This document shows, piece by piece, positions 4,554 to 55,049 of a stretch of DNA of 64,000 bases. The translations under genes and the position numbers were made by a program. Position 1 is the first letter of the stretch, and each line of letters begins with the position of its first letter. The DNA comes from Escherichia phage vB_EcoM-pEB20, in sequence record OP114733, one strand, 5' to 3'. The notes under the pieces were generated by a model. That model saw nothing but the letters and a program-made list of their open reading frames with translations. It was not told the DNA's origin and ran no database searches.

Positions 4554-4562
4554 TAATAAATA
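4554..4562 (+). promoter_or_regulatory. candidate late promoter (TAATAAATA, one mismatch to T4 late TATAAATA)
   Basis: Sequence at 4554-4562 just upstream of hairpin and e start codon. Confidence 0.4.
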
Positions 4563-4584
4563 CCTCCTATAAACATGGGAGGTA
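4561..4584 (+). promoter_or_regulatory. RBS-sequestering hairpin of lysozyme gene
   Basis: TACCTCC 4561-4567 pairs with GGAGGTA 4578-4584, which contains the SD GGGAGG. Confidence 0.55.
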
Positions 4585-4586
4585 TT

Positions 4587-5075
4587 ATGAATATATTTGA
4601 AATGCTTCGTAATGACGAAGGTCTTAGACTGACTTTATACAAAGACACTGAAGGCTTTTGGACGATTGGCATCGGCCATTTAGTAACAAAGAACCCGTCT
4701 TTAGCCGTAGCTAAAGCTGAACTTGACAGAATGATCGGTCGTAAATGCAACGGTACAATTACCCTTGATGAGGCTGAAAAGCTATTTAATGAAGACGTTG
4801 ATAAAGCCGTCCGCGGAATCTTGGGTAATGCTAAACTTAAACCGGTATATGATTCTTTAGATGCGGTTCGTCGATGCGCATTGGTTAATATGGTCTTCCA
4901 AATGGGTGTATCAGGCGTCGCCGGTTTTACTAATTCTCTTCGTATGCTTCAACAGAAACGTTGGGATGAAGCGGCAGTAAATCTAGCCCAATCTAAATGG
5001 TATCGTCAGACACCTAATCGTGCGAAACGCGTAATCTCAACATTTAAAACAGGAACTTGGAAAGCGTATATATGA
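4587..5075 (+). CDS. e: endolysin, T4 lysozyme (gp e)
   Basis: [31 protein letters not shown] nearly identical to T4 lysozyme as recalled; 162 aa. Confidence 0.95.
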
Positions 5076-11992: not shown

Positions 11993-12205
11993 ATGCAGCA
12001 ATTAAACGAAAGACAACTTCGTAATCTTACTGTAACCCAATTGGATGAAATCCGAAGAGAATTAGGACATTCTATTTCTCATTTAAACGAGGATATCCGT
12101 CAAACTGGTTCTAAAGCTGATTATACACGCAAGCGCAAGCTGGAAAAATACCTCACAGATGTTAAGGCCGTCCAAAGGCGAAAAATAAATACTGGCCAAA
12201 ATTAA
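11993..12205 (+). CDS. hypothetical basic protein
   Basis: ORF track. Confidence 0.5.
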
Positions 12206-12217
12206 CAGGAGGCCTAT

Positions 12218-12520
12218 ATGGCCTTAAGAGCGATAGCTGTCATGGCGATGCTGGGGTTTTTTGCAGCAACAACTCCTATCGTTGGTACTGCATATATCGA
12301 CCCATATTTTGATAACTTTATGGAATCAGGGATTAAAAACGTATATACTTTGTTTGAAATTCAAAATGTCGAGAATTCTGAAAAATTCTATAAGTATATG
12401 GCAAAGCATTACAAAAATAGCCCCTGTGATGATGCATTTGAATGTCATGAACAAGGCATAAAAACTGCCAGACAATTTGCTGAGTTCATGAAAATAAAAT
12501 TAGAGCCTACATCTATCTAA
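12218..12520 (+). CDS. rI: lysis-inhibition protein RI (antiholin)
   Basis: MALRAIAVMAMLGFF..DPYFDNFMESGIKNVY resembles T4 RI as recalled; signal-anchor; adjacent to tk. Confidence 0.75.
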   Translation: MALRAIAVMAMLGFFAATTPIVGTAYIDPYFDNFMESGIKNVYTLFEIQNVENSEKFYKYMAKHYKNSPCDDAFECHEQGIKTARQFAEFMKIKLEPTSI

Positions 12521-14309: not shown

Positions 14310-15295
14310 TGAAAACAATTATGAAAGGCTACTTTGGTAGCCACCTTTATGGAACGTCTACCCCAGAATCTGACGTTGATTTTAAAGAAATTTATGTCCC
14401 TCATGCTCGTGATATCTTGACCGGTAACGTTAAAGAACATATGAGCAAGAACACGAATAACACATCTTCTAAGAACACAAAAGACGACGTGGACCATGAG
14501 TTATATAGTCTCAAATATTTCTTTAAACTAGCTGCGGATGGTGAAACTGTCGCATTAGATATGCTTCACACTCCACCAAGTCTAGTAGTTAAATCTGATT
14601 TGCCTGATGTATGGAAGTATATTCAAGATAACAGGTCTCGTTTCTATACCACTAACATGAAATCTTATTTAGGGTATGTCCGTAAGCAAGCTTCTAAATA
14701 TGGTGTCAAGGGTTCTCGACTGGCTGTTCTTCGTCAAGCCCTTAAACGTTCTAATGAATGGGGACAATACTTTGATAACGGTGCAGTAATTCGTTTATCA
14801 CATATGAAGAATGTTCTGCCTGTAGGTGAATTTGCTTCATGGGTTGAAATCGAAAACGAGAAAACAGGTAAGCAAACATTCTATAATCTGTTAGACCGTA
14901 AATTCCAAGACACGTTAACCAATAAAGAGTTCAATGCCATCCTGGTTAAACTGGAAGAGAACTATGGTGAACGTGCTCGTAAGGCAGAAGCTAACGAAGG
15001 TATTGACTGGAAAGCATTGAGTCATGCATGTCGTGGTGGACTTCAATTATTGGAAATTTACAAAACCGGCGACCTGGTTTACCCACTTCAGGATGCTCCA
15101 TTTATTCTCGATGTTAAGCTTGGTAAACATACGTTTAAAACTGTACAAGAATTCCTAGAAGATATCGTTGACCAAGTTGAACATGCGTCAGAACAAGCTG
15201 CCAAGAATGGTATGCAACAAAAAGTAGATATGAGTTTCTGGGATGATTTCCTTGAGCAGGTCTATCTCGAAAATCATAATTCTTACTATAAATAA
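14306..15295 (+). CDS. nucleotidyltransferase-fold protein (YFGSHLYGTSTPESDVDF)
   Basis: Classic GS...DxD minimal NTase motif near N-terminus. Confidence 0.6.
   Translation: MMKTIMKGYFGSHLYGTSTPESDVDFKEIYVPHARDILTGNVKEHMSKNTNNTSSKNTKDDVDHELYSLKYFFKLAADGETVALDMLHTPPSLVVKSDLPDVWKYIQDNRSRFYTTNMKSYLGYVRKQASKYGVKGSRLAVLRQALKRSNEWGQYFDNGAVIRLSHMKNVLPVGEFASWVEIENEKTGKQTFYNLLDRKFQDTLTNKEFNAILVKLEENYGERARKAEANEGIDWKALSHACRGGLQLLEIYKTGDLVYPLQDAPFILDVKLGKHTFKTVQEFLEDIVDQVEHASEQAAKNGMQQKVDMSFWDDFLEQVYLENHNSYYK
15287..15294 (+). promoter_or_regulatory. candidate late promoter TATAAATA
   Basis: Exact TATAAATA 33 nt upstream of ATG 15327. Confidence 0.4.
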
Positions 15296-15326
15296 ATAGA
15301 TAAATAACCATTAACTTGAGGTAAAT

Positions 15327-15608
15327 ATGAAAAAATTAGTAATTGGTTTATTCGCAGTAATGATGGCATTCTCTGTTGGTGCTACCACGGGTTCAGCCAG
15401 CGGTAGTGCAGGAACTGGTGGTAACCAGTCTTCTGGGCCTTCCAACGGTTCGGTAAATGCATCACATTCTCAGGGTATTGAGAATATCAAATCAAGCTAT
15501 ATTAATAGCACGGCCGGACAAGCAACTGAAGCATGGTCAAAGGGTCGAGTAGTTACACGCTCCGTATTCTGTGATATGCCTAATTATGTTGCTAAGTGCG
15601 ATAAGTAA
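15327..15608 (+). CDS. secreted Gly/Ser-rich small protein with signal peptide
   Basis: MKKLVIGLFAVMMAFSVGA signal peptide; GSASGSAGTGG low complexity. Confidence 0.55.
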   Translation: MKKLVIGLFAVMMAFSVGATTGSASGSAGTGGNQSSGPSNGSVNASHSQGIENIKSSYINSTAGQATEAWSKGRVVTRSVFCDMPNYVAKCDK

Positions 15609-18832: not shown

Positions 18833-19768
18833 ATGGCTTCTATTACACGTAGAGAACTTATCAAAGAATTTACCTCGAACGCATATACCCCAGGACCTAA
18901 TCCTATCCGTATGCCTGTAAAGACTCCTGAAGAGATTGAGGAAATCTGTTCATATTATGGGATTAATTCTCGTAAGTTTACTCAATTTGAATGCGTTACT
19001 AACACACCCGTTAAAGAGTTCATTAAAAATGGTGAGTTCAGCCGTTTATTAGCCAAACAGAAACTTCGTAATTTTTGTATCGGCGGTTACGGACAATATT
19101 TCGCTAAGCAGTTCCGGAATAACCTTAACAATCTGATGGCCATTGCTTCTCGTATTCGTCCTCAAGCAATTAACATGAAACATTTGAAATATACTTACGA
19201 TAAGTTGGAAATCATGGTTATCAGTGAGAATGAGTTCACTCTCACGTATAAACCTAAGAATGATAACGTTGCTCGTGTATTCCACCAAGCGTTGGAAGTG
19301 TTAGGTGATAATATTCACCAGATTAAAGCAATTTATTCTCGTGAGCTTAATATTATCAACCCTATCAAGAATAAGGGCCATATCGCTATCCAGGCTCGTG
19401 TATCTATTGGTAAAAAGGTTCCTGCGCCATGGTGGCACAAAGACTCTGAATACTATCAAAATCTTAAAAAGGAAAATGCAACGTTCGAAGCGTCAATTAC
19501 TGCAACACCAATTGGCCATGCTGAAGTTCTAGGTGCATATTCTACTGCTCCATCTATACACATTTCACCGTCGACTAAACTGGAAATCTCTAACGGTCTT
19601 CTTCCTGCCGAAGATTACCATTATAATCAAATCAAGGCCACTGTAGACCAACTATCCGTTGAACTTGACAAAGCACAAGCTAAGCTTCGTGATGCTCAAC
19701 AAGTAGTTACCAAGCTCCAGTTGCAGTACTCTAAACTTTTTAACGCAATGAATGCGTTAAAATCATAA
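18833..19768 (+). CDS. hypothetical protein with C-terminal coiled coil
   Basis: ORF track; own promoter. Confidence 0.55.
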   Translation: MASITRRELIKEFTSNAYTPGPNPIRMPVKTPEEIEEICSYYGINSRKFTQFECVTNTPVKEFIKNGEFSRLLAKQKLRNFCIGGYGQYFAKQFRNNLNNLMAIASRIRPQAINMKHLKYTYDKLEIMVISENEFTLTYKPKNDNVARVFHQALEVLGDNIHQIKAIYSRELNIINPIKNKGHIAIQARVSIGKKVPAPWWHKDSEYYQNLKKENATFEASITATPIGHAEVLGAYSTAPSIHISPSTKLEISNGLLPAEDYHYNQIKATVDQLSVELDKAQAKLRDAQQVVTKLQLQYSKLFNAMNALKS

Positions 19769-19772
19769 ATCA

Positions 19773-19802
19773 GTTTACAACCAAGGATGGTTGGAGTATA
19801 AT
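19773..19802 (+). promoter_or_regulatory. early promoter with spacer hairpin CAACCA-AGGA-TGGTTG
   Basis: GTTTAC 19773-19778; 6-bp stem in spacer; TATAAT 19797-19802. Confidence 0.55.
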
Positions 19803-19830
19803 GAATTTATCTTAACGAGAGGAAAATATT

Positions 19831-20781
19831 ATGACACGTTCACATTACATTGAATACTTTGCAGGTCTTATCGCTAACGTTCATGCCCAACGTGCTTCTG
19901 GTGCACTAGGATTTGATGTTCCACACCGAGATGTAGTAAGTGGTATTCTTCGCGATTTTGGTACATACACAGGCCAAGAAAATCATATCTGTAAAGATAC
20001 TCAGAATGCGTATTCTCATTCATTAGGGACGCTGCTTCAATGGTTCAAACGTTCTCGTTTATTATCTTCTACTGTAGCTCGCGATAACATTAAAAACTTT
20101 ATGAAACCGAGCTTTATTAAATCTGTGACATCTAAAACTGATTTGGTTGAATTCACTATTGTTAATGATGTTAAAAAGACTCATTTGGCTGATTGGTTAT
20201 CTACCATTCCTGAAACTAAATTTGCTGATAAATTTGCTTGTGAATTCAATAAACAAGTGAATATGCTTTTTAAACATTCTCGTAAATTATTCACTGGCGG
20301 TGATGGCCGTACAAATAAAGTTCATGTTAAAGATTGGGTTACTGCAGTATTCAAACCAACTGGTAATGGTAACGCATCATTATCAATTGATATCCAGGTT
20401 CCTTATTACTACTCACGTAATCTCGGTACCATGAAAGCCGAAGAAATTAATAAGCACAACAAAACTATTCGTTCGTTGTCTTATAAACTTATTACATTGT
20501 TAGAGACTATGGATGTTGTTGAAACGTTCGACGAATCCGAAGATAACGGTTCAATGTTATATAGTTCTCGTACCCGAATTAAGTTGAAGAACCCTAACGA
20601 GTATAAACTTAAGACTATTAAAGAACCTAAAGTAGAAAAGGTTGATATCATGGCTGAAGAACGTGAATATCTCAAATCTCGTCTGAAAGAAGTCGAAGCC
20701 CAGATTGCAGAACAAACTAAATCGTTAAAAGCTCTGAATGCGAAAGCGGATGGTTTACGAAATGCCATTGAGGTGTTATAA
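19831..20781 (+). CDS. hypothetical protein with C-terminal coiled coil
   Basis: ORF track. Confidence 0.55.
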   Translation: MTRSHYIEYFAGLIANVHAQRASGALGFDVPHRDVVSGILRDFGTYTGQENHICKDTQNAYSHSLGTLLQWFKRSRLLSSTVARDNIKNFMKPSFIKSVTSKTDLVEFTIVNDVKKTHLADWLSTIPETKFADKFACEFNKQVNMLFKHSRKLFTGGDGRTNKVHVKDWVTAVFKPTGNGNASLSIDIQVPYYYSRNLGTMKAEEINKHNKTIRSLSYKLITLLETMDVVETFDESEDNGSMLYSSRTRIKLKNPNEYKLKTIKEPKVEKVDIMAEEREYLKSRLKEVEAQIAEQTKSLKALNAKADGLRNAIEVL

Positions 20782-21086
20782 TGAGCCTACGTCTTTTAGA
20801 GGATATTGATATGAGCACTAATCATGACTTGGTTAAGTTTATTGACGATAGTTCAAAGATTGAATTTGTTCAGCGAGATAAAATCCACGGTGAAGAAGAG
20901 TTCGTTCCTCCGGCATGGAACGAAATAATGAAAATGGTTGAACGACGTGAAAATGCTGCCAAATCGGCAGCAAAACATCCATGCCCGGAATGTGGAACTA
21001 TCCAAGTCCAACTGGTTAACTGGACCACTGATAACTTGAAATTGAAATGCCGTAAATGCTTCCACAAATTTGAGAGAACATTATAA
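20781..21086 (+). CDS. zinc-ribbon protein
   Basis: CPECG...CRKC pair. Confidence 0.5.
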   Translation: MSLRLLEDIDMSTNHDLVKFIDDSSKIEFVQRDKIHGEEEFVPPAWNEIMKMVERRENAAKSAAKHPCPECGTIQVQLVNWTTDNLKLKCRKCFHKFERTL

Positions 21087-21499
21087 TGAGATATAGCCTT
21101 CGTTGTTTTATCGCAGCTTTAGTTTTTGCTATTATTCCATTCATTTGGAACAGCCAGAATACTTACATGGAAACTAAAGTAATTCCTGTGGAGGTAGTGG
21201 AATTAATCTCAGGCCAATCTACAGGAAAATATTCTAAATTAGAATTTATTGCAGTCTATAAAGATGAGCAAGGACGAGTTTTTGACAGGCGTGTATCACC
21301 GTCGTTTTATACGCTTCTGAATAAAGGTGATACGATAGCTATAGAAATTCGTGAGATGGATATCAAACAAACTACTAAAGATAACTTGATTTGGTTCTTT
21401 GGTACGGTGTTGTTGGTTTCTATCTGTATCACAGGTTTTATTACATGTATTGTATTTGGCATTGCATATTTAATCGATGAAAGGAAAAATAATGTTTAA
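21086..21499 (+). CDS. membrane protein (N- and C-terminal TM helices)
   Basis: ORF track. Confidence 0.5.
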   Translation: MRYSLRCFIAALVFAIIPFIWNSQNTYMETKVIPVEVVELISGQSTGKYSKLEFIAVYKDEQGRVFDRRVSPSFYTLLNKGDTIAIEIREMDIKQTTKDNLIWFFGTVLLVSICITGFITCIVFGIAYLIDERKNNV

Positions 21500-21755
21500 A
21501 GTGTACGGGTATGACTCTACTATTCATAAATGCATTTATTGTGATAATGCGAAACGATTGCTGACTGTTAAGAAACAGCCGTTCGAATTCATTAACGTGA
21601 TGCCAGAAAAAGGTGTTTTTGATGATGAGAAAATTGCTGAGCTTCTGGTTAAGCTTGGACGTGAATCACAAGTCGGATTGACTATGCCTCAAGTGTTTGC
21701 TCCTGACGGAAGTCACATTGGTGGATTTGATCAACTGCGAGAATATTTTAAATGA
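21492..21755 (+). CDS. nrdC: phage thioredoxin/glutaredoxin NrdC
   Basis: MFKVYGYDSTIHKCIYCDNAKRLL...GGFDQLREYFK resembles T4 NrdC as recalled. Confidence 0.9.
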   Translation: MFKVYGYDSTIHKCIYCDNAKRLLTVKKQPFEFINVMPEKGVFDDEKIAELLVKLGRESQVGLTMPQVFAPDGSHIGGFDQLREYFK

Positions 21756-21967
21756 TGCTTGAAGGAACTGATTATATCCATGACTACCGCGGAAGCGCGG
21801 TATATGTAGGTGATGAAGTTGCAGTTTATTATGGGTATGGAACTTTGATGACAGCCAAGGTTATTCAAATTAAAAATAATCGTGCTAAACTCGAAGTTTA
21901 TTATTCTAATGGCGAAAAGTCTATTTCTAAATGGAAATACGGCGATTGCATGGTCAAACTGGGGTAA
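21752..21967 (+). CDS. hypothetical protein
   Basis: ORF track; ATGA overlap. Confidence 0.5.
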   Translation: MMLEGTDYIHDYRGSAVYVGDEVAVYYGYGTLMTAKVIQIKNNRAKLEVYYSNGEKSISKWKYGDCMVKLG

Positions 21968-21969
21968 AT

Positions 21970-22140
21970 ATGATTTACGATATTAGTGCAGCAAGAGCTC
22001 CATCAATGGTTACTATTCCTGTTGAAGAATTAGATCGTCTTCAGAAAATTGAAGAGCTTCTTTGGGAAATTGAATCTGATTTGCCATCTGGGCTAGAATC
22101 CTGGATTGATTATGAAGAACTTAATAAGCTCCGCGGTTAA
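21970..22140 (+). CDS. hypothetical protein
   Basis: M14 of ORF 21931. Confidence 0.45.
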   Translation: MIYDISAARAPSMVTIPVEELDRLQKIEELLWEIESDLPSGLESWIDYEELNKLRG

Positions 22141-22268
22141 ACCATGGTATTCGGCTCGATGGGAGACGGTCGAGCCAGACGTCGAAACAGTTTACAACGA
22201 CGAAGAAACGTGTTATGATGAACCTTCAATAAATGAATTAATTGATATGGAAATGGGAAGAGATTATT

Positions 22269-22439
22269 ATGCAAGTTAAATTATTGTACCGTTTATTAAA
22301 AAATGGCAAGCATGATTGGTATTTGCTTATTAAAACCGATCCGAATTTTTTCTCTGGACAACCATTTACAGTTCGTCCTACTAAACGTCAGCTTCGCAAA
22401 GCTAAACGTTCTCATCGTAACTTTTATAGAGAATATTGA
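22269..22439 (+). CDS. small basic protein
   Basis: M10 of ORF 22242 after GGGAAGAG. Confidence 0.45.
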   Translation: MQVKLLYRLLKNGKHDWYLLIKTDPNFFSGQPFTVRPTKRQLRKAKRSHRNFYREY

Positions 22440-22440
22440 T

Positions 22441-22866
22441 ATGAATATTTCTGAAACTCGCGGTAAATGGTTCAAGATTGTTAAAGAAGATGAAGAACTA
22501 CAAGTCAAGTTTCCTGAATTAAAGAAAGGAACAATCATCAAGGTAATTGGTACTACGACCGAAGATGGTTATGGCGACCATGGCATTATTGAAGTGATGT
22601 TGAACACTGGTGAGAAACTTTGCATCTATGACCGTGATACTTCTCTTTGGTGCTTCTGGGAATCACATTCAATAGATGAACTCGAAGAAATTGATTCGGC
22701 TGATATTGCGGATGTGCTAGGTAGTAAACTTGGCGAATTCGAAGGTGAACGTATTTCTTATGCATTAGCTAAATTAGCCGGACAAGAAAATAACGACGGC
22801 TATGAAGGTAACCTGATGCAAGCAGCCGCAGAATACATTGAATATTTAGAAAGACGTTTAAGTTAA
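22441..22866 (+). CDS. hypothetical acidic protein
   Basis: M47 of ORF 22303. Confidence 0.5.
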   Translation: MNISETRGKWFKIVKEDEELQVKFPELKKGTIIKVIGTTTEDGYGDHGIIEVMLNTGEKLCIYDRDTSLWCFWESHSIDELEEIDSADIADVLGSKLGEFEGERISYALAKLAGQENNDGYEGNLMQAAAEYIEYLERRLS

Positions 22867-22872
22867 TAAATA
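22864..22872 (+). promoter_or_regulatory. candidate late promoter TAATAAATA upstream of gene 49
   Basis: Same motif as upstream of e. Confidence 0.4.
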
Positions 22873-22896
22873 CCCTTATCTATTTAAGGTAAGGGT
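22872..22896 (+). promoter_or_regulatory. RBS-sequestering hairpin of gene 49
   Basis: ACCCTTA 22872-22878 pairs with TAAGGGT 22890-22896, which contains the SD. Confidence 0.5.
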
Positions 22897-22901
22897 TTAT
22901 C

Positions 22902-23375
22902 ATGTTATTATCAGGCGCAAAATATAAAGAAGAAAAACAAAAATTTTATGATGCACAGAACGGTAAGTGTCCTATTTGCCACCGTGAATTAGACCCTGAT
23001 GTTCAAGGTAACCATCTTGACCACGACCACGAATTAAACGGGCCAAAAGCAGGTAGAGTTCGTGGGTTACTCTGTTCTCTGTGCAACGCAGCAGAAGGTC
23101 AAATGAAGCATAAGTTCAACCGTTCCGGTCTTAAAGGTCGTGATGTCAACTACCTAGAATGGCTTGAAGCTCTTCTTGCTTATTTGAAACAAGATTATTC
23201 TGATAATAATATCCATCCTAATTTTGTTCCAGACAAAACTAAAGAGTTCTCAAGACTAGGTAAAGAGGAAATGATGGCCGAGATGCTTCAAAGAGGATTT
23301 GAATATAATGAATCTGATACTAAAACACAATTAATAGCTTCATTCAAAAAGCAGCTTAGAAAGAGTTTAAAATGA
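22902..23375 (+). CDS. 49: endonuclease VII (Holliday junction resolvase)
   Basis: MLLSGAKYKEEKQKFYDAQNGKCPICHRELDPDVQGNHLDHDHE... resembles T4 gp49 as recalled; 157 aa. Confidence 0.9.
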   Translation: MLLSGAKYKEEKQKFYDAQNGKCPICHRELDPDVQGNHLDHDHELNGPKAGRVRGLLCSLCNAAEGQMKHKFNRSGLKGRDVNYLEWLEALLAYLKQDYSDNNIHPNFVPDKTKEFSRLGKEEMMAEMLQRGFEYNESDTKTQLIASFKKQLRKSLK

Positions 23376-25189
23376 AAATTGAAAAAGAAATTGAAGGATT
23401 AATTCATAAAACTAATAAAGATCTTTTGAACGAGAACGCTAATAAAGATTCTCGTGTTTTTCCAACTCAACGGGACCTTATGGCTGGTATTGTGTCTAAG
23501 CACATTGCCAAAAATATGGTCCCGTCTTTTATTATGAATGCGCATGAAAGCGGAATCATTCACATGCATGATATTGATTATTCTCCTGCTCTTCCGTTTA
23601 CCAATTGCTGTTTAGTCGATTTAAAGGGGATGCTTGAGAATGGATTTAAATTAGGCAATGCTCAAATTGAAACGCCTAAATCTATTGGTGTTGCTACTGC
23701 AATTATGGCACAAATTACTGCACAAGTTGCTTCACACCAGTATGGCGGAACTACATTTGCGAATGTCGATAAAGTTCTTTCTCCTTATGTTAAACGCACA
23801 TACGCTAAACATGTTGAAGATGCAGAAAAATGGCAAATCGCTGATGCGTTGAATTATGCTCAATCCAAAACAGAAAAAGATGTCTATGACGCGTTCCAAG
23901 CTTATGAATATGAAGTAAATACTCTCTTTAGTTCAAACGGACAAACGCCTTTTGTAACAATTACATTTGGTATGGGAACTGACTGGACTGAACGAATGAT
24001 TCAGAAGGCAATTCTTAAAAACCGCATTAAAGGTCTTGGTCGTGATGGAATAACTCCTATTTTTCCTAAACTTGTTATGTTTGTTGAAGAAGGTGTTAAT
24101 CTTTATAAAGATGATCCAAACTATGATATTAAACAACTTGCGTTAGAATGTGCAAGCAAAAGAATGTATCCTGACATTATTTCGGTTAAGAATAATAAAG
24201 CTATTACCGGTTCTTCAGTTCCAGTTTCTCCAATGGGTTGCCGTAGTTTCTTGAGCGTATGGAAAGATTCGACTGGTAATGAAATTCTTGATGGACGTAA
24301 TAATCTTGGTGTTGTAACACTGAATCTTCCTCGTATCGCATTAGATTCTTATATTGGAACACAGTTCAATGAACAGAAATTTATCGAATTGTTTAATGAA
24401 CGAATGGATCTGTGTTTTGAAGCTTTGATGTGTAGAATTAGTTCCTTAAAAGGAGTTAAAGCGACTGTTGCTCCTATTCTTTACCAAGAAGGTGCATTCG
24501 GGGTTCGTCTTAAACCTGATGACGATATAATTGAGTTATTTAAAAACGGTAGAAGTTCAGTGTCTTTGGGATACATTGGTATTCACGAATTGAATATTCT
24601 TGTCGGTCGTGATATTGGACAAGAAATTTTAACTAAAATGAATGCTCATCTTAAACAGTGGACTGAAAGAACTGGTTTTGCTTTTAGTTTATATTCTACT
24701 CCTGCTGAAAACCTTTGTTATCGCTTCTGTAAACTCGATACAGAAAAATATGGAAGTGTAAAGGATGTTACCGATAAAGGCTGGTACACTAATAGTTTCC
24801 ATGTTTCAGTAGAAGAAAATATTACTCCGTTTGAAAAGATTTCTCGTGAAGCGCCATATCATTTCATTGCGACAGGTGGTCACATTTCTTATGTTGAACT
24901 TCCAGATATGAAAAACAATTTAAAGGGACTTGAGGCTGTCTGGGATTATGCTGCACAACATTTAGATTATTTTGGTGTTAATATGCCAGTGGATAAATGT
25001 TTTACATGCGGAAGTACTCATGAAATGACTCCCACTGAAAACGGATTTGTTTGTTCAGTTTGTGGAGAAACTGATCCTAAAAAGATGAACACAATAAGAA
25101 GAACATGTGGTTATTTGGGAAATCCGAACGAACGCGGATTTAATCTCGGTAAAAATAAAGAAATCATGCATAGGGTTAAACACCAATGA
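23372..25189 (+). CDS. nrdD: anaerobic ribonucleoside-triphosphate reductase
   Basis: 605 aa; C-terminal glycyl radical site RTCGYLG; Cys cluster CFTCG...CSVCG; uninterrupted ORF. Confidence 0.9.
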   Translation: MKIEKEIEGLIHKTNKDLLNENANKDSRVFPTQRDLMAGIVSKHIAKNMVPSFIMNAHESGIIHMHDIDYSPALPFTNCCLVDLKGMLENGFKLGNAQIETPKSIGVATAIMAQITAQVASHQYGGTTFANVDKVLSPYVKRTYAKHVEDAEKWQIADALNYAQSKTEKDVYDAFQAYEYEVNTLFSSNGQTPFVTITFGMGTDWTERMIQKAILKNRIKGLGRDGITPIFPKLVMFVEEGVNLYKDDPNYDIKQLALECASKRMYPDIISVKNNKAITGSSVPVSPMGCRSFLSVWKDSTGNEILDGRNNLGVVTLNLPRIALDSYIGTQFNEQKFIELFNERMDLCFEALMCRISSLKGVKATVAPILYQEGAFGVRLKPDDDIIELFKNGRSSVSLGYIGIHELNILVGRDIGQEILTKMNAHLKQWTERTGFAFSLYSTPAENLCYRFCKLDTEKYGSVKDVTDKGWYTNSFHVSVEENITPFEKISREAPYHFIATGGHISYVELPDMKNNLKGLEAVWDYAAQHLDYFGVNMPVDKCFTCGSTHEMTPTENGFVCSVCGETDPKKMNTIRRTCGYLGNPNERGFNLGKNKEIMHRVKHQ

Positions 25190-25656
25190 ATTATGATAGA
25201 TTTTATCCTTGCGATTTTGTGAATGGCCCTGGCTGCAGGGTCGTTCTTTTCGTTACAGGTTGTTTGCATAAATGCGAAGGGTGTTATAATAAATCAACAT
25301 GGAATGCTAGAAATGGTATTCCATTCACTGGAGAGACACTAGAACAATTGATTGAATGTTTGAATAATGATTATATAGAAGGATTAACTATAACCGGAGG
25401 AGACCCTCTCTATCCTGATAATCGAGATGTTATTCATTGCATTGTTCAAACAGTAAAACATCTTTATCCCAATAAAAGCATTTGGTTGTGGACAGGATAT
25501 AAGTTTGAAGATATTAAACAACTAGAAATGCTTAAATATGTTGATGTTATTATTGATGGGAAGTATGAGAAAAATCTTCCGACTAAAAAGCTGTGGCGAG
25601 GATCAGATAATCAGCGACTTTGGTCAAATACCGATGGGGTGTGGAAACATGATTAA
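25186..25656 (+). CDS. nrdG: anaerobic RNR activating enzyme (radical SAM)
   Basis: GCLHKCEGC CxxxCxxC motif; follows nrdD. Confidence 0.85.
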   Translation: MNYDRFYPCDFVNGPGCRVVLFVTGCLHKCEGCYNKSTWNARNGIPFTGETLEQLIECLNNDYIEGLTITGGDPLYPDNRDVIHCIVQTVKHLYPNKSIWLWTGYKFEDIKQLEMLKYVDVIIDGKYEKNLPTKKLWRGSDNQRLWSNTDGVWKHD

Positions 25657-28838: not shown

Positions 28839-28910
28839 TATCTCGTGCTTTAAGATAGGTCTCTAAATATTATGATATAATAGACCTATGAATTGAGCCA
28901 AGAGGTACTT

Positions 28911-29468
28911 ATGACTGAACAAAAACCTAAAAATAACTATGTGAATAATAAAGAGCTTCTCGCCGCTATAATCGAGTGGAAAAAGGAGCTCTTAAATAAT
29001 AAAGACCCAAACAAAATTATTCGTCAGAATGATACCATCGGTTTAGCAATTATGCTTATCGCCGAAGGCCTGTCCAAACGTTTCAACTTTTCAGGATATA
29101 CCCAGTCTTGGAAGCAGGAGATGATTGCAGATGGGATTGAAGCCTCTATTAAGGGACTTCATAATTTCGACGAAACTAAGTACAATAACCCACATGCATA
29201 CATAACTCGAGCTTGTTTTAATGCTTTTGTCCAACGTATCAAAAAAGAACGTAAGGAAGTTGCAAAGAAATACAGTTACTTCGTTCATAATGTCTACGAC
29301 AGTCATGACGATGATATGGTAGCGTTGGTAGATGAAACGTTTATTCAAGACATCTACGATAAAATGACGCATTATGAAGAATCCGCTTATAAAGCTCCTG
29401 GGGCTGAAAAGAAGGAAGTTGTTAGCGATTCGCCTAGTTTGGATTTTTTATATGAGGATGACAATTGA
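28911..29468 (+). CDS. 55: late-transcription sigma factor gp55
   Basis: [50 protein letters not shown] resembles T4 gp55 as recalled; 185 aa. Confidence 0.9.
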
Positions 29469-34312: not shown

Positions 34313-34354
34313 TAAATTTGTTATAAACTTTGAATTGTCTTGAAAGGAAATAAA

Positions 34355-35041
34355 ATGAAACTGTCTAAAGATACTATCGCTATTCTGAAAAACTTCGCTT
34401 CTATTAACTCTGGCATCCTGCTGAGTCAAGGTAAATTTATTATGACTCGTGCAGTTAATGGCACCACTTACGCAGAAGCAAATATCTCTGATGAAATTGA
34501 TTTTGACGTAGCACTTTATGATTTGAATAGCTTCTTAAGCATTTTGAGTCTAGTGTCTGATGATGCTGAAATTTCAATGCACACCGATGGCAATATTAAA
34601 ATTGCAGATACACGTTCTACTGTTTATTGGCCTGCCGCAGACAAGAGCACTATCGTGTTCCCGAATAAGCCAATTCAGTTCCCAGTAGCTTCCGTTATTA
34701 CTGAAATTAAAGCTGAAGACCTCCAACAATTGCTCCGAGTTTCACGTGGACTGCAGATTGATACAATTGCTATTACAAATAAAGATGGTAAAATTGTTAT
34801 CAATGGCTATAATAAAGTTGAAGATTCTGGACTAACTCGTCCTAAGTATTCTTTGACTCTTACCGATTATGATGGTTCTAACAACTTTAACTTCGTAATC
34901 AATATGGCTAATATGAAAATCCAGCCAGGTAACTATAAAGTAATGTTGTGGGGAGCTGGTGATAAAGTTGCAGCCAAGTTTGAAAGCTCTCAAGTAAGTT
35001 ATGTTATTGCGATGGAAGCCGATTCTACTCACGACTTCTAA
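34355..35041 (+). CDS. 45: sliding clamp gp45
   Basis: 228 aa from M6 of ORF 34340; MKLSKDTIAILKNFASINSGILL as T4/RB69 gp45. Confidence 0.9.
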   Translation: MKLSKDTIAILKNFASINSGILLSQGKFIMTRAVNGTTYAEANISDEIDFDVALYDLNSFLSILSLVSDDAEISMHTDGNIKIADTRSTVYWPAADKSTIVFPNKPIQFPVASVITEIKAEDLQQLLRVSRGLQIDTIAITNKDGKIVINGYNKVEDSGLTRPKYSLTLTDYDGSNNFNFVINMANMKIQPGNYKVMLWGAGDKVAAKFESSQVSYVIAMEADSTHDF

Positions 35042-47647: not shown

Positions 47648-47981
47648 TCTCGATGATTTAAATCTAGAAATCGTTGATGAATCCCCTTCTTCGGAAGGGG
47701 AAGACATTCGCAAAGAACGAGTGTTTAATGAATCTCTTAAAATTGTCCGTTCAGCAATGGAAAATGTCATTCAAGAGATTCTGATTACACTTGAAGACGG
47801 TTCCCATCATATAGTCTATATTACAAAACTAGACTGGGTTGATGGTAAAATCGTAATGGACTTTGCAGTTCTTGACCAGGACAGAAAAGCAGAACTTGCA
47901 CCACACGTTGAAAAATGTGTTACAATGCAAGTACAACAAGCTTTTAATGAACGGACCAAGAAAAAATTTAAATTCTTTTAA
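47640..47981 (+). CDS. gp40-like protein (by synteny)
   Basis: M41 of ORF 47520; 113 aa between uvsX and 41. Confidence 0.5.
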   Translation: MNNLDDLNLEIVDESPSSEGEDIRKERVFNESLKIVRSAMENVIQEILITLEDGSHHIVYITKLDWVDGKIVMDFAVLDQDRKAELAPHVEKCVTMQVQQAFNERTKKKFKFF

Positions 47982-53961: not shown

Positions 53962-54155
53962 ACCAGTCCTACAATAGCAAAGGCCAAATCAACTACAGTA
54001 TCCAATGGAACAGAAGGAACTATAATACCATGGGCAACTAACAATGGTGCAATCCCGAAGTTCCATGAAATAATGCCACCTACAACTATTGCAGCGATAG
54101 CAGTTTTCTTTTTATTGCCTTTAATAGCGTTGATTAACGATGGAAGTTTAAACAT
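53958..54155 (-). CDS. small membrane protein on minus strand (convergent with primase); probable late gene
   Basis: Only minus-strand ORF lying in a + strand gap; AAGGAG RBS 7 nt upstream on minus strand; TAATAAATA-like motif upstream. Confidence 0.6.
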   Translation of the reverse strand: MFKLPSLINAIKGNKKKTAIAAIVVGGIISWNFGIAPLLVAHGIIVPSVPLDTVVDLAFAIVGLV

Positions 54156-54245
54156 AATAATCTCCTTAGTTACCTATTATTTATTACGCTTTATAAAATT
54201 AATGTTAGAATTAAACTCTCTTATACTGAATTGAAAGGAAAAATA

Positions 54246-54773: not shown

Positions 54774-54781
54774 TATAAATA
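54774..54781 (+). promoter_or_regulatory. late promoter TATAAATA upstream of soc
   Basis: Exact TATAAATA 32 nt upstream of soc ATG. Confidence 0.6.
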
Positions 54782-54812
54782 CACCTGTAATTAAACAACA
54801 AAGGAGTTAATT

Positions 54813-55049
54813 ATGGGTGGTTATGTAAACATCAAAACCTTTACGCATCCTGCGGGTGAAGGTAAAGAAGTTAAAGGTATGGAAGTTTCTGTACCGTTTG
54901 AGATTTATTCAAACGAACATCGGATTGCAGATTCTCATTACCAAATCTTTCCATCAGAAAAGGCAGCTTATTCTACTGTAGTTTCTGATGCAGCTGACTG
55001 GAAAACTAAGAACGCTGCAATGTTTACCCCTACACCAGTAAGTGGTTAA
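54813..55049 (+). CDS. soc: small outer capsid protein Soc
   Basis: GYVNIKTF and HYQIFPSEKAAYSTV resemble T4 Soc as recalled; 78 aa. Confidence 0.85.
   Translation: MGGYVNIKTFTHPAGEGKEVKGMEVSVPFEIYSNEHRIADSHYQIFPSEKAAYSTVVSDAADWKTKNAAMFTPTPVSG

Follow-up and report, generated by a model that had tools for sequence, protein, structure and literature searches.

A promoter-overlapping leader hairpin at gene 49 of a Mosigvirus and its relatives among T4-type phages

Gene 49 leaders of T4 and of an RB69-like relative

The late promoter and the inhibitory leader hairpin of T4 gene 49 were reportedly described by Barth, Powell, Trupin and Mosig in 1988, and the translational control of T4 gene e (lysozyme) is said to have been described by McPheeters et al. 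in 1986. The e, soc, 49 and I-TevI genes of T4 are known cases in which the Shine-Dalgarno (SD) sequence and/or the AUG codon is sequestered in long early read-through RNA (PMC3014915). Transcripts that start at the adjacent upstream late promoter, in which the 5' portion of the structure is missing, are translated (PMC3014915, PMC2988022). PMC2988022 cites Barth et al. (1988) for the T4 inhibitory leader structures. T4 soc and I-TevI, as well as mobE of phage Aeh1, are late genes located in early transcription units, and their ribosome-binding regions are hidden in the read-through RNA (PMC2988022, PMC3014915). The late motif of T4, TATAAATA, is defined at positions -13 to -6, and position -13 is poorly conserved, A or T being common there (PMC1524935).

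The window analysed here is the whole 64,000-nt stretch of the genome of Escherichia phage vB_EcoM-pEB20 (OP114733), a Mosigvirus, which is RB69-like and belongs to the T4 family. The region of gene 49 is 99% identical to those of vB_Eco_NicPhage and mar005P1 (Mosigvirus). The identity of the gene 49 product as endonuclease VII is based on the presence of both the catalytic Endonuclease_7 domain (PF02945, E=3.3e-19) and the T4 endonuclease VII dimerisation domain (PF09124, E=2.5e-32), with both matches over their cut-offs; the product also matches phrog_423 (E=2.8e-60) and is 88% identical to T4 gp49. The start codon is the ATG at 22902-22904, which confirms the assignment made in the initial annotation of this DNA, and the 157-aa reading frame runs to 23375. 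The start of nrdD overlaps the gene 49 stop codon (ATGA at 23372). At the upstream side, the stop codon of pin (TAA, 22864-22866) coincides with bases 1-3 of the 9-mer TAATAAATA, which the initial annotation had located, with exact coordinates, at 22864-22872. The T that precedes the octamer AATAAATA in this 9-mer thus belongs to pin, as the initial base of its stop codon.

The octamer AATAAATA (22865-22872) matches the T4 consensus at seven of the eight positions, and the sole mismatch is at the variable position -13. It is a putative T4-type late promoter, and by homology it would depend on gp55 in this phage. Because the published motif occupies positions -13 to -6 (PMC1524935), the late transcript would start at A22878. 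The late sigma factor gp55, whose ORF as listed begins with TTG, is expected to be the factor that recognises the motif. The genes of gp55 and of the gp45 clamp, two parts of the late-transcription machinery, both lie within the window. The gene 49 leader of RB69 carries TATAAATA, as do the leaders of two relatives with 96-97% identity. In RB69 a late promoter, Pl:47792 (47750-47792, minus strand), was predicted by Nolan et al. (2006), and its span includes the octamer that corresponds to the gene 49 site of the window. A late promoter at gene 49 is annotated in only one of the inspected records.

In RB69 (L050, 832-1061) and many relatives, pin and gene 49 are separated by an ORF of about 60 aa (RB69ORF087c), which is absent from the window. 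The junction of this indel is at position -13/-14 of the late promoter (window 22860-22866), where the T-to-A difference lies; the relatives with the small extra ORF carry TATAAATA.

The initial annotation had also likened the locus to the known regulation of T4 gene 49, and this likeness was borne out, as both the motif and the hairpin are identical to those of the T4 gene 49 leader (AATAATAAATACCCTTATCTATTTAAGGTAAGGGTTTATTATG). The identity covers 37 nt (22864-22900, TAATAAATACCCTTATCTATTTAAGGTAAGGGTTTAT), which in T4 are also located between pin and gene 49, and includes the same octamer AATAAATA (not TATAAATA), the stem, the loop and the SD. The two phages differ in the base that follows these 37 nt and precedes the AUG, which is C in the window and T in T4; in T4 the promoter bases can additionally pair with UUAUUAUG, and the C weakens this pairing. 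They also differ in the end of pin, which in the window is a TAA fused to the motif and in T4 is a TGA further upstream. Megablast similarity to Tequatrovirus genomes starts exactly at 22864, and pin is too diverged to align. Thus, the element has stayed with gene 49, next to a pin gene that has diverged. The late-promoter/hairpin arrangement at gene 49 is an already known T4 device, found here base for base in an RB69-like relative.

The coding sequences of gene 49 differ as well. In T4 the nested product gp49' starts at an internal GUG (codon 53, annotated in AF158101), whereas the window has GTT at the corresponding position (23058-23060). Codon 53 is GTG in only two of 36 distinct 157-aa gene 49 sequences; hence the nested product seems specific to the closest relatives of T4. 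The ATG of Met68 (window 23091-23110) is invariant in all 36 sequences. It is preceded by GAAGG, synonymous sites near it are unusually constant in the same set, and PHROG family 24351 (90 positions) matches gp49 residues 68-157 exactly. Met68 may be an alternative internal start, or the pattern may come from active-site and codon-bias effects.

Table 1. Features of the gene 49 locus and late-transcription genes in the window.
Feature	Position	Strand	Evidence
Two sigma-70-like promoter candidates upstream of pin	22191-22219 and 22242-22270	+	consensus scan only
pin (Lon protease inhibitor), CDS	22441..22866	+	Pfam PF10465, E=4.7e-49; annotated Pin in vB_Eco_NicPhage
Late-promoter-like octamer AATAAATA, positions -13 to -6	22865..22872	+	sequence, T4 identity, relatives
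Hairpin 5' arm ACCCUUAUCU	22872..22881	+	folds, covariation
Late transcription start (A), inferred	22878	+	6 nt after octamer, within hairpin 5' arm
Hairpin loop AUUUA, 5 nt	22882..22886	+	fold
Hairpin 3' arm AGGUAAGGGU	22887..22896	+	folds, sequence
Gene 49, recombination/packaging endonuclease VII, 157 aa	22902..23375	+	PF02945, PF09124, phrog_423
gp55, late sigma factor	28893..29468	+	phrog_234 'late sigma transcription factor', E=3.9e-68
gp45, sliding clamp, co-activator of T4-type late transcription	34340..35041	+	Pfam PF09116, PF02916

Folding of read-through and late-type RNAs

According to the initial annotation, ACCCTTA at 22872-22878 pairs with TAAGGGT at 22890-22896, which contains the SD. 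The coordinates are exact and the computed fold agrees, but the stem is longer than stated there and comprises 10 bp (22872-22881 with 22887-22896). The first base of its 5' arm is the last base of the promoter octamer. The SD (UAAGGGU/AAGGG, 22890-22896) lies wholly inside the 3' arm, 5 nt ahead of the AUG. The full leader folds with -12.9 kcal/mol (z = -2.2 to about -3), and two of 200 dinucleotide shuffles are as stable, so the fold of this single sequence is only moderately unusual. The start region of gene 49 is the most structured among the 93 plus-strand ORF starts in the window, and equally stable 33-nt segments make up 0.26% of all such segments on both strands.

The structure depends on where the RNA begins. 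By their positions, read-through pin transcripts would carry both arms of the hairpin. A start at the inferred +1 (22878) strips six of the ten bases from the 5' arm, and RNAs that start at 22878, 22879 or 22880 fold with only -1.5 kcal/mol and have an open centroid. The T4 record has an early promoter, P1, annotated ahead of pin. In the window, the two sigma-70-like candidates upstream of pin are possible, though weak, sources of early read-through RNA; the scanned region contains 21 sigma-70-like sites vs 20.3 in shuffles, and hence no excess over chance. No terminator-like sites were found on the plus strand from 19500 to 25221 by a scan requiring at least five T in eight bases.

The element is very probably orthologous to the translation-initiation switch of T4 gene 49. 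In the early phase of infection, transcripts started upstream and reading through pin would carry both arms of the 10-bp hairpin, which would pair the SD and keep ribosomes from starting on gene 49. After the onset of replication, polymerase with gp55 (plus gp33 and the gp45 clamp) would recognise AATAAATA and initiate at about 22878, inside the 5' arm. The resulting short late mRNA, without six of the ten arm bases, could not form the hairpin, and its SD would be free. Full-length endonuclease VII would then be made when branched DNA needs resolving for packaging. For this phage, homology is the basis for the late start site, for dependence on gp55 and for the effect on translation. The discovery value of the locus is small, as it would be textbook T4 gene 49 control in an exact copy. 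The leaders of T4 soc and I-TevI and of Aeh1 mobE are similar in that a late gene resides in an early unit with a hidden ribosome-binding region. The soc leader differs from that of gene 49, as its stem buries the AUG rather than the SD and the sequences are unrelated.

The same hairpin has been annotated in another way. In vB_EcoM_MM02 (L131, MK373784.1, 194-216; 97.7% identical here) it is labelled 'putative transcriptional terminator, -10.70', and other records also list a terminator under the same match. Accordingly, the hairpin could be an intrinsic terminator or attenuator that ends pin and other early transcripts before gene 49, with the motif being incidental or restarting transcription. 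It resembles a Rho-independent terminator in being a short stem-loop behind a stop codon. UUUAU comes after the stem here, and UAUUUUUGU does so in one distant relative (L111). Unlike such a terminator, it has an A/U-rich stem and a helix that covers the SD or AUG of the next gene, and the U-tract is absent: the tail in the window is UUUAUCAU, and the hairpin fails the simple scan for five T in eight bases. The stem of most relatives reaches up to the AUG or into it, which leaves no room for a U-tract. A terminator has no need of the two overlaps that are conserved, in which the 3' arm overlaps the SD or AUG and the 5' arm overlaps the promoter. Termination at this site would also affect nrdD, whose start overlaps the gene 49 stop codon. 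Past the hairpin there is only a weak 9-of-12 promoter match (23184-23212, inside gene 49); as no other candidate promoter is present beyond the hairpin, early nrdD expression would need read-through. We consider termination an unlikely function of the hairpin, and the label in vB_EcoM_MM02 is probably an automatic call that misses the role of the hairpin at the ribosome-binding site. For annotation, the lesson is that the record of at least one close relative labels the gene 49 leader hairpin as a terminator.

Conservation and covariation of the leader

Two scans of IMG/VR with gp49 recovered loci down to 41% protein identity; Aeh1 was confirmed among them, and the other distant loci come from genomes of 160-233 kb. 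Motif and folding analyses cover 59 distinct gene 49 leaders, and alignment and geometry the first 29 of these. A TAAATA-containing motif is located 17-33 nt ahead of the start codon in all 59 leaders, and in each of them it is accompanied by a hairpin over the SD or AUG. The mean free energy in this set is -15.2 kcal/mol for the read-through form vs -2.0 kcal/mol for RNA begun 6 nt after the motif. Over positions -13 to +3, the unpaired probability averages 0.23 in early-type RNA and 0.56 in late-type RNA. In 29 of 29 leaders the stem begins within the motif, 0-2 nt from its 3' end.

Covariation was scored on a plain MAFFT alignment (A1) of the 29 leaders. This alignment misaligns the 3' arm of about eight distant sequences, and thus the pairing is understated. 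A covariance-model alignment (A2, model R1) was left out of the pair counts, as minus-strand and unrelated weak hits were mixed in. In A1, 90.4% of the cells are paired, vs 36-49% when the 3' partner is slid, and the covariation score is 0.466 vs at most 0.133 with the same displacement. Both sides have changed at five pairs, four stem positions show two to four Watson-Crick pair types, and none of 500 shuffles attains the observed covariation values. Unguided RNAalifold returns the same helix. The stems are wholly different between clades, for example CCCUUAUCU/AGGUAAGGG, GGUUCAUCU/AGAGGUGAACC and CUCUUAUC/GAGGUAAGAG; further clade stems are GAGUCAU/AUGACUC and AUGACACC/GGUGUUAU. This strong comparative evidence argues that the leader helix is functional and is maintained by selection through compensatory changes. 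The set provides clean covariation support for a structure that is otherwise argued, in the cited sources, from the T4 sequence alone.

A U.G pair is retained in 25 of the 29 leaders. Because the corresponding bases of the opposite strand would not pair, the structure acts as plus-strand RNA. A DNA cruciform was considered and rejected, as the conserved U.G pair works in plus-strand RNA only.

At Aeh1-like loci the motif at gene 49 is CTAAATA, which is the published late consensus of Aeh1 (PMC1524935). On this comparison, the promoter motif tracks the late consensus of each phage. In the ATAAATA class of the 59 leaders, the base at -13 is A in 27, G in 10, T in nine and C in five, so gene 49 tolerates different bases at this late-promoter position. 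The rarity of T (9/59) might reflect selection for a weak promoter.

Several distant leaders have a modified geometry. In L107 the 5' arm is upstream of the promoter, which is thus in the loop. The stems of L109, L117 and L042 pair the AUG and the first codons and not the SD. The L111 leader has a T-run behind the hairpin and no clearly visible SD.

The hairpin could also act in RNA processing or stability, as an endonuclease target on early transcripts or as a 3' stabiliser of pin mRNA, with masking of the SD being secondary. The 1988 abstract of Barth et al. is said to propose that early gene 49 transcripts are sequestered and/or cleaved at the hairpin site, and pin mRNA that ends in a stable stem-loop could be protected. 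However, the pairing over the SD or AUG is kept in every lineage despite the different stems, which argues against a sequence-specific cleavage site. As the main function of the hairpin, processing or stabilisation seems improbable, slightly more so than termination, and it is compatible with the translation switch.

The remaining alternative is a chance coincidence of an A/T-rich motif and a small inverted repeat in an A/T-rich spacer. The 9-mer TAATAAATA is not enriched in the window (three copies vs 2.4 expected), and the z-score of the single-sequence fold is only moderate, as given above. On the other hand, ATAAATA is about threefold depleted, with 10 copies on both strands vs 29.5 +/- 5.9 expected, and is nearly confined to gene starts: nine of the 10 copies are 12-32 nt upstream of an ORF start (from the motif end to the first ATG of an ORF of more than 40 aa). 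Moreover, all 59 distinct relatives have the arrangement, with compensatory changes, and 37 nt are identical to T4 beside a diverged pin. The comparative data, i.e. the covariation in relatives, exclude chance for practical purposes, and we give it hardly any credence.

A search of Rfam matched no curated family and gave just two far-sub-threshold chance hits. A new Rfam family could be set up for the gene 49 switch, which has none so far. We tentatively suggest, with somewhat more doubt than confidence, that the promoter-inside-hairpin switch at gene 49 is a very deeply conserved cis-regulatory RNA of T4-type phages. Its range, as judged from the leaders compared, would extend from Tequatrovirus to the Aeromonas phage Aeh1 and other distant T4-type phages, down to 41% gp49 identity. 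What this analysis modestly adds is broad covariation evidence and the finding that Rfam lacks such a family.

Late-promoter motifs elsewhere in the window

The ORFs located behind the ATAAATA copies include e, rI.-1, rI, a 93-aa ORF, 49, soc and a 65-aa ORF on the minus strand. The exact T4 octamer TATAAATA occurs three times in the window vs 7.4 expected. The scarcity of ATAAATA and of TATAAATA is consistent with avoidance of stray late promoters in a mostly early region.

From its occurrence at both e and 49, the initial annotation had proposed TAATAAATA as the late-promoter consensus of this phage. This proposal did not hold. Exact TATAAATA is present at soc (54774), rI.-1 (11961) and a site at about 15287, and another site in the window has GATAAATA. 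Neither is the variant specific for this phage, since T4 has the same AATAAATA at gene 49, where RB69 has TATAAATA. Among the likely late promoters of the window, the base at -13 is A at four (e, rI, 49 and 54184 on the minus strand), T at three (rI.-1, about 15288 and soc) and G at one. The proposed consensus fails because position -13 varies, as already published (PMC1524935), and because the leading T at gene 49 belongs to the pin stop codon.

The same layout had been claimed for gene e, and here the initial annotation was right. The octamer AATAAATA is at 4555-4562 and a 12-bp stem covers GGAGG; the arrangement extends over 4555-4586, and the hairpin folds with -16 kcal/mol (z = -4.6). As in T4 gene e, the late promoter is within the 5' arm of an SD-burying hairpin. 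This differs from gene 49 of the window in that the gene is another one and the stem sequence is unrelated. T4 e has two exact TATAAATA octamers; in the window their places are taken by AATAAATA and a degenerate second copy (TATAAACA). Within the hairpin, at 4575, there is an in-frame ATG upstream of the T4-equivalent start at 4587.

Upstream of soc, an exact TATAAATA (54774-54781) is directly followed by a 13-bp stem (54782-54794 with 54807-54819; -12.4 kcal/mol, z = -3.1), which buries the AUG at 54813 and not the SD. This motif and the minus-strand motif (54145-54186) form a divergent late-promoter-like pair about 600 bp apart. On the minus strand, TAATAAATA precedes the 65-aa membrane-like ORF (phrog_2024), and folding of its leader gave no hairpin. 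Three overlapping octamers (TATAAATA, AATAAATA and GATAAATA) at 15287-15306 precede the 93-aa signal-peptide-like ORF (ATG at 15327, phrog_2243); a leader hairpin was looked for by folding at this ORF and is absent.

The rI gene (antiholin family, ATG at 12218) has AATAAATA at 12184-12191. A 6-bp GGCC-containing stem spans from the end of its SD to the first codons (-12.1 kcal/mol, z = -2.05). Late RNA would still contain this stem, which is located downstream of the predicted start of that RNA.
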